Shown: positions 17,545 to 23,440, counted from the first letter of the stretch. The stretch: 26,751 bases of DNA from a virus (IMGVR_UViG_2534681936_000019), one strand, 5' to 3'. Program-made: numbers and translations. The notes: generated by a model not told the origin, from the letters alone.

Positions 17545-17823
17545 TTACCTCCAGATGCGTTGCTGGAATGTGCGGGACGGACGCGGTGGGCGCTCGGAGT
17601 ACGGCAGCCTGACGTAGATTATCCAGTGACGATAATCGAGGCTGAGGGCTTTCCTAAACTCATACCCACGTCTGCGGTAGTTCTGAATCAGCCATTCGGC
17701 CTGTTCTTCAGTGCATGGGGCGTGCCGGAACCAGTCAGATTTGAATGCATGAGAACGCCGCCCGTGCCTGCTGGCAAAGACGGCTGAATTATCAGAATTG
17801 TGTAGTCTGGAATTTTGCGCCAT
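17545..17823 (-). CDS. Hypothetical 92-aa protein (Rem-like position)
   Basis: ORF abutting the DUF968 gene; no recognisable motif. Confidence 0.4.
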   Translation of the reverse strand: MAQNSRLHNSDNSAVFASRHGRRSHAFKSDWFRHAPCTEEQAEWLIQNYRRRGYEFRKALSLDYRHWIIYVRLPYSERPPRPSRTFQQRIWR

Positions 17824-17892
17824 CGGCTTTCTCCGGTGGCACAGTGTTACTCAACAGGGGTTCAGCCCTGCGCTGAATTGTAGATGAATTCA

Positions 17893-18198
17893 CTAATCTT
17901 CAAAAGCAGAAAAACCAGCCTTAATCCCAGCTTCTTTCAGAGACGGCAACGATGTGACAAATTCATTTTCACGCAAAATAAAACCATCCGTCACAAGTCC
18001 ATCCACAAAGTAAATTAACGCAGCTCCACTCTTCCTATGTAGAGACTGTAAACATTTAATACGGCAGTGGCTGACAATAGCGCCATTCTCAACGCGCACA
18101 GTATAGAGGCCATCTTCACTAAAAATTTCACGTAATTCTTCGATTTTCATCAACAGAATCCTTCCAGATAAATAGCACTCCCCCTGTTCGGGGTCCAT
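17893..18198 (-). CDS. Hypothetical protein (likely start at internal MKIEELREIF, about 85 aa)
   Basis: ORF only; no recognisable motif. Confidence 0.35.
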   Translation of the reverse strand: MDPEQGECYLSGRILLMKIEELREIFSEDGLYTVRVENGAIVSHCRIKCLQSLHRKSGAALIYFVDGLVTDGFILRENEFVTSLPSLKEAGIKAGFSAFED

Positions 18199-18269
18199 CC
18201 CTCTTCTCCCTGCGCGCTACTTAAGTATTTTTGATTCTATTCTGGCACCGTCCAAAACTTCAAACACGT

Positions 18270-18304
18270 TGAAAATAAAAACAAAAAACCCGCCGAAGCG
18301 GGTA
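18270..18304 (-). terminator. Intrinsic terminator after the HTH-ImmA gene; copy 1 of a duplicated 20-nt hairpin
   Basis: Minus strand ACCCGC TTCG GCGGGT followed by TTTTTTGTTTTTATTTT; plus-strand 20-mer AAAAACCCGCCGAAGCGGGT at 18284-18303 recurs at 20119-20138. Confidence 0.6.
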
Positions 18305-18307
18305 TAC

Positions 18308-19414
18308 TCAAACAATCTGGAAAATATTTCTTGGATTTGTAATAGGTCTGTTGATGGAGAACAACTCACGAATTAAATCTTGGCTCAAGCCAGTTTTCAT
18401 AAGAATTCTTAGCCAGGTTGCATCATCCAGCATTTCAATCGCCTCGGCCAGCATGCCGGGTTCTTCAGGGCGCAAAAGTTCATCACCAGGTTCAACTCTC
18501 GTATACCCTCTGGAATTAAGATGCATATAGCCAGTTCTTGCCTGTTCCTGGGTCAATAAGCCTAATGCGCTGGCTCGATAAATACACATTTTAAGGCTGA
18601 TTTTCCATCTAAGTTTAAATTCAACCAGAGCATTCCAGTCGAATTGCTTACCTCGTATTCGTGGAAATTCTTTAATGAAAGATAACCTGGGAACTAATAA
18701 GGCGCTCGAAAAGTGATCGGCTTGTGATTCCGTAAGTTTATCACCTGTCGTTATGCCCTCATGCATTACTAAATGCCCTAATTCATGACCTAAATCAGAG
18801 CGAAATCTACATATGCTTTTTTTAACATTGTTCCTGATGATAACAGGCCTGTTATTGTGAACAGTAAAAGCATCAACACGATCATCGACTCCCGTAACAT
18901 GCGCAACGATTACCCCTAAACTCTCCGCCAATTTAACCATTGATGATATAGGGCCAAGACCTAAATTCCAGGCACGGCGACAATCTTCTGCCACTCGCTC
19001 AATATCATTCGGAGTAAGTAATTCAGCCCCTGGGTGCTCCGGTATGTTAACGTCAGGAAATTCGATTTCACCTTCAACAGCAGAAATTATAATATTAAGA
19101 ATCTCAGCCCTGGCCAATACACTATTAGTCAGCGTTTGAGTCCTGGACTTCTTACTCCGAAAATGGCAGACATCACTTTCCAGAGCGTATTTTCGTTCAG
19201 TAAAAAGAAAACTGGACTTAATCATAAGCGCTGAAGATATTAACTCAAGACATTGCTCCGATGGCCTGCACCCCTTCTCCAGTTTGCTAACAAATTGCTT
19301 TGTCTTGCCAATTTTTTCGGCTAACTCTTCACAAGAAAGCCCAACAGCCATTCTCGCTAGTTTGAGCTTATCACCCCGATACTCAGTGAAGTTATTCACC
19401 TGATGTTCCATCAC
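18308..19414 (-). CDS. XRE-family HTH fused to ImmA/IrrE-type zinc metallopeptidase (COG2856-like)
   Basis: N-terminal HTH (LKLARMAVGLSCEELAEKIGKTKQFVSKLEKG) and HEXXH motif (SDLGHELGHLVMHEG) plus a ~130-aa C-terminal extension. Confidence 0.85.
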   Translation of the reverse strand: MMEHQVNNFTEYRGDKLKLARMAVGLSCEELAEKIGKTKQFVSKLEKGCRPSEQCLELISSALMIKSSFLFTERKYALESDVCHFRSKKSRTQTLTNSVLARAEILNIIISAVEGEIEFPDVNIPEHPGAELLTPNDIERVAEDCRRAWNLGLGPISSMVKLAESLGVIVAHVTGVDDRVDAFTVHNNRPVIIRNNVKKSICRFRSDLGHELGHLVMHEGITTGDKLTESQADHFSSALLVPRLSFIKEFPRIRGKQFDWNALVEFKLRWKISLKMCIYRASALGLLTQEQARTGYMHLNSRGYTRVEPGDELLRPEEPGMLAEAIEMLDDATWLRILMKTGLSQDLIRELFSINRPITNPRNIFQIV

Positions 19415-20042
19415 TGCTCACATCCAAATCTTTATCCTTCGTACGCCGACGAAGAGGCACCTTATTAATCTCCGCTTCGTCAGGGAGTGTGTTATAATCA
19501 AGAGGCATAAGCGGCATCGATGCTGTAGATTGATGAGAAACTATACTAATCTGAGCACCATAAGTATTAAATCCAACAAGAGCTACCTCCCAACGAGGCA
19601 GTGTGGACTCTAATTCACCATCGCCCTCTTCGGATAAAAAAGGCTCAGCTATGACTCGCCATGTAATATCTTGCTCAGCCTCAACATCACCAAACAATGA
19701 GAGCTGCTCATACTCTACTTTATTTCGACGCAGACGATGTTTCTTTTTGGGGTTATTAATGCAATCTTTGGTAAATTGTAGCGGAACTTTATTTAAAGCA
19801 ACTACATAGTCCAACCCCTTGGAAATCATCTCAAGGCCAGGAATTGCATCTTCATTTTGAATAAGATGATTTCTGACCCAATCATAAGCCCTTACACCTT
19901 CAGACCAGTTGCTGTCTAATGCGTGCTTATGATAGTACAGCTGCTCAAGTACGTTAGCGATCTCCGCCAACAAGTGGCGAACATAGTTTTCAGCAAGATA
20001 AGGTTGAAATTCCCAACAAGGAGCTAACTGATTTTCATTCAT
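19392..20042 (-). CDS. Uncharacterised acidic 216-aa protein, translationally coupled (23-nt overlap) to the downstream HTH-ImmA gene
   Basis: Clean ORF MNENQLAPCWEFQPYLAENYVRHLLAEIANVLEQLYYHKH...; no recognisable domain. Confidence 0.6.
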   Translation of the reverse strand: MNENQLAPCWEFQPYLAENYVRHLLAEIANVLEQLYYHKHALDSNWSEGVRAYDWVRNHLIQNEDAIPGLEMISKGLDYVVALNKVPLQFTKDCINNPKKKHRLRRNKVEYEQLSLFGDVEAEQDITWRVIAEPFLSEEGDGELESTLPRWEVALVGFNTYGAQISIVSHQSTASMPLMPLDYNTLPDEAEINKVPLRRRTKDKDLDVSSDGTSGE

Positions 20043-20114
20043 TTCAAGTTTCGCTTTTTTTAGAATTCGTAAACCACATATTTTCGCATTTTTCTATTTT
20101 TGTCAACCAGACTA

Positions 20115-20140
20115 ATGCAAAAACCCGCCGAAGCGGGTTA
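20115..20140 (-). terminator. Intrinsic terminator after hok; copy 2 of the duplicated 20-nt hairpin
   Basis: Minus strand AACCCGC TTCG GCGGGTT + TTTTGC; shares the 20-mer AAAAACCCGCCGAAGCGGGT with 18284-18303. Confidence 0.6.
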
Positions 20141-20207
20141 AGTGCGGGTGCGTTGAGGATGCCTGGCACATCAGAGGTGGCGGGAGATTACTCCCCCGCC
20201 GGGTCTC

Positions 20208-20363
20208 TTACTCCTCAGGTTCGTAAGCTGTGAAGACAGCGACCTCCGTCTGGCCGGTTCGGATTCGTACCTCGCAGAGGTCTTTCCTCGTTACCAGTGC
20301 CGTCACTATGACGGTTAAACAGATGACGATCAGGGCGATTAACATCGCCTTTTGCTGCTTCAT
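20208..20363 (-). CDS. hok: Hok-family type I toxin (HokD/RelF-like, 51 aa)
   Basis: MKQQKAMLIALIVICLTVIVTALVTRKDLCEVRIRTGQTEVAVFTAYEPEE, a Hok/Gef sequence; below the ORF-track size cut-off. Confidence 0.9.
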   Translation of the reverse strand: MKQQKAMLIALIVICLTVIVTALVTRKDLCEVRIRTGQTEVAVFTAYEPEE

Positions 20364-20421
20364 AGCCTGCTTCTCCTTGACCTTTTGGTCCGTAAGAGGC
20401 TAACCTACATGTGTCTAGCAT
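20215..20421 (-). CDS. mok: mok-like overlapping reading frame (modulation of killing)
   Basis: 68-aa ORF in another frame covering almost all of hok, as in hok/mok/sok loci. Confidence 0.55.
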   Translation of the reverse strand: MLDTCRLASYGPKGQGEAGYEAAKGDVNRPDRHLFNRHSDGTGNEERPLRGTNPNRPDGGRCLHSLRT

Positions 20422-20575
20422 GAAATTGGCCTCAGATTAATGTTAAGCGTCTTGCAGGACGCGTAATGTTAACTGGGGCTTTTCTCTATCTGCCTTTGGT
20501 GTTCATGCCCGAGGCAGATAGCCTCAAGCACCCGCAGCCATTCTACTTAACTACCGTTACCTCGCCAATGTGAAA

Positions 20576-20797
20576 TCAGTCAGAAAGGCGATCCATAAGA
20601 ACAATAGCAAGACAATAAATCGCCATTACAGCCGTAATAGCCAGCGCACATTTGAGAACCAGCACCACACAACCTCCTGTATTGGACGTACACCAGTCCT
20701 GATGAATATGAGGCTGTCTCGTCAGTGATTCAATACAACTATTGGGTATAGTTTCTCTGATTTTTTCTGTGGAAATGGGGCTCAACCCACTAGTCAT
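20576..20797 (-). CDS. Hypothetical ORF; probably only a 29-aa hydrophobic peptide (GTG start, 20576..20665) is real
   Basis: AGGAGG about 7 nt upstream of an internal GTG gives VLVLKCALAITAVMAIYCLAIVLMDRLSD. Confidence 0.25.
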   Translation of the reverse strand: MTSGLSPISTEKIRETIPNSCIESLTRQPHIHQDWCTSNTGGCVVLVLKCALAITAVMAIYCLAIVLMDRLSD

Positions 20798-21615: not shown

Positions 21616-23069
21616 CTATTGTTTTAATAACATTTCAAAATCCTCATTCCAGTGCGTGTTTTGTGAAATACGGGTATCAATTTCATCAAGCAGCATATCA
21701 TGAGAAAGTATGCTTAAAGGGTCATTCCCATTTTTACCAAAACGCATCGTAGTTTCTGCTATTTCCCAATCTTCTGCGCTGATTGATGGCTGTATTGCAT
21801 GGCAGTAGATAGCCTTCACATCCTTTTCATGACAGTCAAAATTATTGATGCTTTCTGCAATTTTACGAGCTCTTTCAATTTCGACAACTGGACCATGTAA
21901 AGTTTCATATGATATGTGCACAATTGTAGGGGTATTATCTGGAACCTGTCGTACCGCTTTGCTTAAGTGCGTTTTAATATCTTTTGCTTTTTTATTAATC
22001 GATTCCTCTGCTATACATTCCCAACGAGCACAGTAACCAGAGTGTATTCCAGTGCAAAAAATGTTAAGTATATCAACACCGTCGTCCGGACCTACTCGTA
22101 CAAGTCCTTTTGGGGCACAAAGATGAGTGTAATTTTCGCTGCTGCTAAAACTTCCGGCCAACAACGAAACCATCTGTGGAGAGTTCCATTTAACTATGTA
22201 TTTTTCAAAATGCTCATTGATATTTTTCATATCTATTCTATTAATCAGTATTATAATTTCATCATTTTCTATTCTCAGTGACTTTTTCGTCGAGATATTA
22301 GACTTTATTTCATTGAAGATTTTTGCTAAAATATATTCATCTGTATCTTTTACTTCAACCTTGAAAAGCACGTCTAAAAATATATTTTGTCTAGACTGAG
22401 TTAGAATAGGTACTAAATTGAGCCATCTTTGCCTCCATTCTCGACGCTCATTTTCAGAATATTCAGTCACTTTAGATAAACGCTTACATTCCACAAAAAA
22501 GCTTTCTTCACCTTTAGTAACTTTTAAATCAGGAGTTTTATTTAATGCTGTTTCTGGAATAAATTCTACTCTATAACCATTGCGCGCATACATAATCGCA
22601 ACAACTAATTCAAACAATGTTGAATCAGGTTGATTTATTTTACCGTTAAGAAATTCCGAAAGTTTTTCATCAATCCCAACAATTTTTTTTGCAAGCTCAA
22701 TATGTCTTCCAACAGCCGCAAAAAAGGGAAATACTCGGGCTGATTGCGCTAACTCGCTAACTAAAGGCCGTTCATGTAAGCATTCTACAAGAAAAAGATA
22801 CCATGCAACCCAATCCTCATGAAATGCCACCCTATTTTTTGGCTCTTCCATACTCTTCATTGCTTGGTCAAAATTCTTATAGGTGTTATCTTCCTGTTCT
22901 CTGAAGTACTTGACTACATTTTTTTGCGAGTCTCCCAAGTATCCTTTTCCAGATAAGATAAAAACCAGTCCAATGCGATTTTCGTATGATGATGCCAGGG
23001 ACTGGTATCCGTTGCTGCAAAAATCTCTTGTAGTTCTTTTGAATATTCCAATGTCTGTGTGTTAGCCAT
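21616..23069 (-). CDS. PD-(D/E)xK nuclease-like protein (~484 aa if a poly-A frameshift at 22919-22925 is bridged), AT-rich cargo gene
   Basis: Motif block ELVVAIMYARNGYRVEFIPE...TPDLKV...ESFFVECKRLSK (E, PD, ExK). ORF track gives 21616..22938 (TTG start); an ATG at 23069 with GAGGT RBS opens MANTQTLEYSKELQEIFAATDTSPWHHH..., which joins the main frame if the A7 run were A8. Confidence 0.6.
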
Positions 23070-23440
23070 TTTGACCTCATCATTGTTAATTTATGAGATT
23101 TTACAACTTATAATGCATCTTCCAGATCGAGCCTCCAAGTAAGAAATCAGGCTAAATCAGACAGATATGTAATATATCCCTAGTCAATTAGGCAGTCCAC
23201 CCATAAATCCTAACAGTACGAAAATGGTTGGAACGTTATCCTAGGTTACTGCTCATCGTTTCCTTATGACCTCAATATATAAATATCCCAGCTCTTGCGG
23301 TTCGATTGTATGATTGACAGTCCGCTCCTGGCACAAAGCGGACAACCACGCCAGATCTACCCTGTGCCATGAAAAATGAGAATGTCAATTCACTCCTGAA
23401 CTAATGCTTTTTAATCTAGTAACGTCTAAAATACCTAACA

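Follow-up and report, generated by a model that had tools for sequence, protein, structure and literature searches.

The DNA analysed here is a stretch of 26,751 nucleotides (nt) from a virus (IMGVR_UViG_2534681936_000019; below, the window), all of which lies within a lambda-like (lambdoid) E. coli prophage adjoining tRNA-Ser/mtfA and which has a near-exact match in E. coli FDAARGOS_946. Its minus strand carries a cassette of two overlapping open reading frames (ORFs), one called at 19392..20042 (216 amino acids, aa) and the other at 18308..19414 (368 aa, GTG start). For the second we prefer an ATG start at 19411, on the strength of the RefSeq annotation of identical DNA and of an alignment of homologues; the product then has 367 aa. 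The initial annotation had described this overlapping pair correctly, save that the overlap becomes 20 nt rather than 23, and had taken it for an uncharacterised kind of module. That proved not to be the case: models of RosmerTA, a toxin–antitoxin (TA) family that already has a name, match both proteins, and by sequence the pair is a RosmerTA (RmrT/RmrA) member. Because these models are public, standard defence finders should already label the locus. We refer to the upstream gene as rmrT and to the downstream gene as rmrA.

RmrA is the more readily classified of the two proteins. Pfam assigned a helix-turn-helix (HTH) domain, HTH_3, to residues 17-63 and Peptidase_M78 to residues 177-282. The best PADLOC match was the RmrA model PDLC03943 (E 6e-105, near full length), followed by 13 more RmrA models, and the scores of capP (E 1.6e-14) and capH (E 1.5e-4) were far weaker. 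The NCBIfam model 'spr1629 family repressor/antitoxin' also matched (E 1.5e-45), below its family cut-off. These three resources agree with the earlier description of the protein as an XRE-HTH fused to a HEXXH peptidase of the ImmA/IrrE type, and on its sequence RmrA is an antitoxin-like protein of the COG2856 type. The HELGH motif is encoded at 18773-18787 (minus strand), and the HEXXH residues (H210, E211 and H214), H218 and E229 were invariant in nine RmrA sequences that included the one from the verified RosmerTA of E. coli OLC-716. The OLC-716 protein shares 29% identity with RmrA over 300 residues (E 2e-35). The ratio of nonsynonymous to synonymous substitution rates (dN/dS) was 0.02 for rmrA and 0.07 for rmrT, with synonymous sites saturated in both, which indicates that both genes are under strong purifying selection. 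In the segment CHFRSKKSRT (residues 83-92; window about 19139-19168, minus strand), part of the HTH–peptidase linker, F85 and R86 were likewise invariant in 9/9 RmrA sequences, the verified one included. By analogy with the cleavage of ImmR and DdrO, this region could be a self-processing or regulatory site.

The 216-aa partner is acidic, as first noted (isoelectric point 4.9). The same annotation could not name its family; PADLOC assigned it to the RmrT model PDLC03929 (E 4.6e-25), with residues 7-209 aligned to positions 5-195 of the 198 in the profile. RmrT also matched phrog_5786 (E 8e-85), and searches with Pfam and NCBIfam returned no match. It has no hydrophobic segment (maximum 19-aa hydropathy 0.84). 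Its family comprises 21 clusters at 90% identity in a collection of 5.8 billion proteins, the named ones all from Enterobacterales. At 50% identity, 37 of 1.84 billion cluster representatives belong to it; they are mostly about 190-225 aa long, a few being shorter fragments, and distant members match the same PDLC03929 model. A structural model computed with AlphaFold2 from an alignment of 35 family members (predicted local distance difference test score 80, predicted template modelling score 0.71) has a pair of long helices followed by a three-stranded meander, then two short helices and three further strands, and ends in a disordered tail. Foldseek comparisons of this model with PDB and BFVD gave nothing significant, and the family profile had no match among PDB sequences. 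The near-invariant residues are D43, P98, E110, W128 and G157; no PD-(D/E)xK motif is among them, and the candidate D78 is not conserved. On these results a nuclease-like fold is only a weak lead, and that RmrT acts on nucleic acid is a weak guess. Three RmrT homologues (P0013, P0014 and P0016, from Salmonella, one other genome and Plesiomonas) have divergent, apparently frameshifted C-terminal thirds, and the third of them is also extended by 56 aa at its N terminus. Decay of the copies or artefacts of annotation may account for these forms.

We examined 10 other loci, from Xenorhabdus, Serratia, Enterobacter, Buttiauxella and further genomes or metagenomes, and in 10/10 an HTH+M78 gene lay directly 3' of the RmrT homologue in the same orientation, at RmrT identities as low as 21%. 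The question, raised at the outset, of whether the pair travels together was thus answered in the affirmative. The two genes overlap in nine of these loci, and in the tenth (L010) the called gene is shorter and begins 70 nt downstream. The two proteins diverge in parallel, with RmrA/RmrT identities (in per cent) of 92/84, 86/76, 73/65, 64/54, 56/40, 41/28 and 38/21. The position within the prophage varies: between the replication genes and nin/Q, between Q and the holin gene, or between the lysis genes and the terminase gene. Since the same pair recurs at different prophage positions, it moves as a unit. The cassette thus combines what defines RosmerTA, namely an XRE-HTH and M78 protein with an intact HEXXH, an adjacent, co-oriented partner in the same operon, and membership of that partner in a catalogued RmrT family.

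Table 1. The rmrTA cassette and its flanking features, in the direction of transcription (positions in the window)
Feature	Position	Strand	Remarks
sok antisense region (flank)	20361..20533	-	Full-length match to Rfam RF01794, 110 bits
hokD toxin gene (flank)	20208..20363	-	HokD protein identical to WP_000813254.1
Upstream hairpin copy	20119..20138	-	Exact repeat; intrinsic terminator 3' of the hokD transcript; sole copy at the K-12 Qin empty site
Cassette promoter and leader	20043..20118	-	TTGACA -35; two tandem bipartite motifs
rmrT, putative toxin/effector	19392..20042	-	216 aa; soluble, acidic; RefSeq WP_001004956.1 'hypothetical protein'
rmrA, putative antitoxin/regulator	18308..19411	-	367 aa; XRE HTH and M78; RefSeq WP_000401168.1
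Downstream hairpin copy	18284..18303	-	The cassette's own intrinsic terminator; long T tract after it
rem-like gene (flank, downstream of cassette)	17893..18153	-	Aligns with the start of K-12 rem; phrog_340; RefSeq WP_077629088.1

In the direction of transcription, hokD and sok lie just upstream of the cassette and the rem-like gene lies downstream. The hokD terminator and the start codon (ATG) of rmrT are 76 nt apart, and this interval holds a perfect -35 element, TTGACA (20101-20106), and two tandem copies of a bipartite motif, GGTTKAC-N14-GCGAAA (20082-20108 and 20049-20075), with a period of 33 nt. The motif pair is equally placed in the Enterobacter, Buttiauxella and Serratia cassettes and in that of a further locus (L012), the Xenorhabdus cassette has one copy, and the motif was not found in 126 other loci scanned. 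Over the 75 nt upstream of rmrT, the E. coli sequence is 81-83% identical to those of Enterobacter and Serratia, as against 64-81% for the coding DNA. The conservation of this upstream region despite the saturation of synonymous sites points to a constrained regulatory element, and the tandem motifs are probably operators for RmrA.

The initial annotation had pointed out that the same 20-nt hairpin flanks the cassette on both sides, each copy resembling a minus-strand terminator, and this stood up to exact matching, terminator scoring and folding. The 20-mer AAAAACCCGCCGAAGCGGGT occurs exactly twice (18284-18303 and 20119-20138; 0 matches in 100 shuffles) and nowhere else in the 40-kb prophage. 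Both copies score as intrinsic-terminator-like hairpins on the minus strand, with a UUCG loop (and, in the upstream copy, seven pairs), and their folding energies are -15.1 kcal/mol for the upstream copy and -10.9 kcal/mol for the downstream one. When the specificity of the repeat was checked in a scan of species-representative genomes, the 20-mer was present at 120 unrelated loci or more, whose hosts include Pseudomonas, Serratia, Dyella, Nitrosospira and a member of the Bacillota. The Buttiauxella cassette ends in the identical 20 nt, with no hok nearby and no upstream copy, and the Enterobacter and L012 cassettes end in the same stem with different loops. The sequence is, by these comparisons, a generic UUCG-tetraloop terminator that is not specific to an insertion event. 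As the cassettes of those other genomes end likewise, the downstream copy is the cassette's own terminator and the upstream copy that of hokD. Being generic, widespread and the cassette's own terminator in Buttiauxella, the 20-mer is uninformative on the mechanism of insertion; identity of the two copies may nevertheless have steered recombination, as gain or loss of the cassette. We rejected a target-site duplication or transposon origin of the repeat, given its generic nature, the Buttiauxella copy and the lack of any transposase or integrase among the cassette ORFs. The hairpin (19-20 nt) also occurs twice on the same strand, 150-1500 bp apart, in unrelated genomes from Serratia, Stutzerimonas and others (L019, L074, L100 and L103). 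In two of these (L074 and L100, Pseudomonas-type contexts) the genes between the hairpins are unrelated to the cassette, and in such genomes the hairpin may be part of a repeated extragenic element.

The cassette was present in 237 of 5426 complete E. coli genomes (about 4%), with identity of at least 99% in 224 records; carriers include O55:H7 strains, 042, ABU 83972 and VR50. A 3-kb query comprising the cassette and both flanks (17640-20640) was at least 80% covered by one match in 232 genomes, so that the cassette occupies the same neighbourhood there. At the empty site, as in K-12 MC1061/Qin and many other genomes, 165 bp of sequence runs uninterrupted from one flank into the other, with a single hairpin between rem and hokD; flanks joined through one copy occur in thousands of E. 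coli genomes. Flanks joined in this way make the cassette a 1835-bp indel bounded by a 20-nt direct repeat. The proposal of a self-contained module inserted at the hok terminator was therefore right about self-containment and about presence and absence relative to Qin, and wrong in reading the repeat as the mark of an insertion. Replacement of relBE by the cassette, which had also been suggested, was rejected: relBE lies upstream of hokD in Qin, and the cassette lies downstream of it.

Other cargo was observed at the same site. In E. coli 1506D011 (L135, NZ_CP149559.1, 863-2231), where rem is missing, a different cassette lies downstream of hokD, likewise between two hairpin copies (CAAAACCCGCCGAAGCGGGT). 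It codes for an HTH protein (119 aa), an ImmA/IrrE peptidase (158 aa, with a HELGH motif) and a Cys-rich ORF product (60 aa). In O178:H19 2012C-4431 (L136), a RelE/ParE and HTH pair lies at this site on the opposite strand, with one hairpin copy. To judge by these sequences, TA-like cargo appears to have a hotspot downstream of hokD.

RosmerTA was described as a system that defends and whose rmrA deletion could not be transformed (Millman 2022). The verified system, from E. coli OLC-716 (sequences in the preprint supplement, 10.1101/2022.05.11.491447), has the same toxin-then-antitoxin order, an RmrA of about 370 aa that begins with an XRE HTH and carries an M78 HEXXH peptidase, and a toxin of about 200-240 aa with no known domain; it differs in model for both toxin (PDLC03929 here, PDLC03935 there) and RmrA (PDLC03943 here, PDLC03949 there). 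RmrA/ImmA proteins are an antitoxin hub with many unrelated toxins as partners (PMC10440598). The RosmerTA of Gordonia phage Kita (Ernits et al. 2023, PMC10440598) is also phage-borne and pairs an ImmA-type antitoxin with a toxin of unknown family; the Kita RmrT is localised to the membrane and depolarises it (PMC10440598), whereas the RmrT described here has no hydrophobic segment. RipAB (Spr1630/Spr1629) of Streptococcus pneumoniae and other Xre-COG2856 TA pairs share the HTH and ImmA architecture of the antitoxin. RipAB is chromosomal and Gram-positive, and RipA targets the DnaN sliding clamp in a ClpX-dependent manner (PMC12795458); no sequence link between RipA and RmrT was detected. In three Pectobacteriaceae rmrA is essential, as is clpX, though the latter only in strains that carry a Rosmer system (PMC13566846); RipAB behaves similarly (PMC12795458), and in E. 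coli E101 ClpX or ClpP is essential owing to a Rosmer system. ImmR/ImmA (ICEBs1), IrrE/DdrO (Deinococcus) and CapH/CapP, regulators of the cyclic-oligonucleotide-based antiphage signalling system (CBASS), likewise combine an M78 zinc peptidase with an XRE HTH partner. In those pairs the repressor and the protease are separate and control a neighbouring operon, whereas here the two are fused and encoded with a co-transcribed toxin-like gene. By analogy, their signal-activated proteolysis is the likely logic of RmrA.

As to its place in the prophage, the cassette resembles the lambdoid 'morons' of Hendrix and colleagues in being a promoter–genes–terminator unit between genes that are adjacent in related phages. 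The single-hairpin empty site in Qin and many genomes, the conserved promoter region and the cassette's own terminator all conform to this description, and the sole oddity is that this terminator is identical to that of the neighbouring hokD. The cassette is an ordinary moron carrying a known kind of system.

We put at about 75% the probability that the cassette is a RosmerTA-type two-gene TA module, most likely serving phage defence by abortive infection, and carried as a moron by a lambdoid prophage, its two genes being translationally coupled. This function is the most likely because of family membership, and the defence or TA role proposed at the outset is upheld as the best reading. In a lysogen, the hokD terminator would insulate the cassette, which would be transcribed from its own promoter. 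RmrA, through its XRE HTH on the tandem GGTTKAC-N14-GCGAAA sites, would repress its own operon and would also render RmrT harmless, for which ClpX or ClpP is needed in other Rosmer systems. Phage infection, or another proteotoxic or DNA signal, would alter RmrA, probably by way of the zinc peptidase as in ImmA, IrrE and CapP. RmrT thus set free would arrest the cell and block phage production, here acting presumably as a soluble cytoplasmic protein rather than as a membrane toxin.

Several results weigh against this interpretation. The toxin shows no homology to the verified RmrT (BLASTP E 7, hhalign probability 0.5%), and we rejected such a relationship on these scores and on the difference in models; its absence does not bar the pair from the family, whose RmrT toxins are explicitly described as heterogeneous (PMC10440598). 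To our knowledge this RmrT subtype has been catalogued without experimental study, and a literature search on WP_001004956.1 and WP_000401168.1 found no paper. Neither the family alignment nor the structure searches gave a catalytic motif or a confident fold match that would account for toxicity. A simple promoter scanner called no promoter at 20043-20118, where the -10 element, AAATAT at 17 nt, is a weak one. The cassette had no megablast match among the deposited phage genomes of INPHARED. Lastly, in PD-lambda-2 the Xre-peptidase is itself the toxic partner (PMC9519451), a precedent by which the roles of toxin and antitoxin could be reversed here. RmrA would then be harmful and the 216-aa protein would neutralise or sense, as in PD-lambda-2 A/B, where the Xre-peptidase fusion PD-lambda-2B is toxic by itself and the upstream gene relieves this (PMC9519451); the lack of a recognisable toxic domain in the 216-aa protein would suit this arrangement. 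We nevertheless give it only a slight chance, as RmrA here matches RmrA models and not the PD-lambda-2 models of PADLOC, and as the failure to obtain the rmrA deletion in the verified system (Millman 2022) and the essentiality of rmrA in the three Pectobacteriaceae (PMC13566846) both speak for a protective RmrA.

The pair might instead serve addiction only, stabilising the prophage or itself with no part in phage defence. Its type II TA architecture is compatible with this, as are the neighbouring hok/sok, another post-segregational killer, the RelE/ParE-HTH pair at the same site in another strain, and RipAB, a Rosmer system tied to competence rather than defence (PMC12795458). Such a role seems unlikely to us in view of the two unrelated Rosmer systems that protect against phages (Millman 2022; phage Kita, PMC10440598) and of the classical moron positions that the module takes in several prophages. 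Least probable among the readings considered is a regulatory switch like ImmR/ImmA or CapH/CapP: the HTH-peptidase would sense stress and derepress genes of the prophage or host, with the 216-aa protein as an accessory factor rather than a toxin. Such switches likewise have an M78 peptidase and an XRE HTH, capP and capH match RmrA with weaker scores, and a split HTH and ImmA pair lies at the same site in strain 1506D011. The HTH and peptidase of RmrA form one polypeptide, however, and its matches to RmrA models are about 90 orders of magnitude stronger; the genes beside the cassette are rem and hokD, with no effector operon, of CBASS or otherwise, and the prophage's own cI/cro-like immunity region is located elsewhere. 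In addition, the cassette is dispensable for otherwise syntenic prophages, and the 216-aa partner is strictly co-inherited. A bolder version of the defence reading, which we regard as tentative and rather doubtful, is that RmrT (PDLC03929/phrog_5786) is a soluble toxin with a new fold or target, restrained by RmrA together with ClpXP, and, as a separate matter, that the site downstream of hokD is a hotspot at which TA-like cassettes are exchanged through recombination between copies of the one terminator hairpin.

Read as a RosmerTA module, the cassette adds one further prophage-borne defence or TA system to the E. coli pangenome. Nothing in it would surprise a specialist, and the remaining interest lies in the activity and trigger of this RmrT subtype, which, with its soluble putative toxin, would make a handy E. 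coli-native model for infection sensing by RmrA and for the toxin's target. The conserved tandem promoter motif offers a concrete candidate operator. Since dependence on ClpX or ClpP has been reported for Rosmer systems, strain-specific synthetic lethality is predicted for carriers of the cassette.

Elsewhere in the window (13444-14157 and about 13100-13400; L002, 13966-14215), the region upstream of the lysis genes holds, according to the RefSeq annotation of the matching genome, clustered tRNA genes (Arg, Arg, Ile) and a gene for an esterase of the SASA family. This arrangement is typical of O157/O55-type lambdoid prophages. Upstream of hok/sok is a low-GC (29-39%) gene (21616-23070, minus strand), which encodes 484 aa in FDAARGOS_946 (WP_115203268.1) and matches phrog_37220, with no Pfam match and a marginal PADLOC match. 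In the window it is frameshifted near 22919, where a T8 run is one base short (T7), and it is possibly another cargo or defence gene, inactivated or phase-variable.

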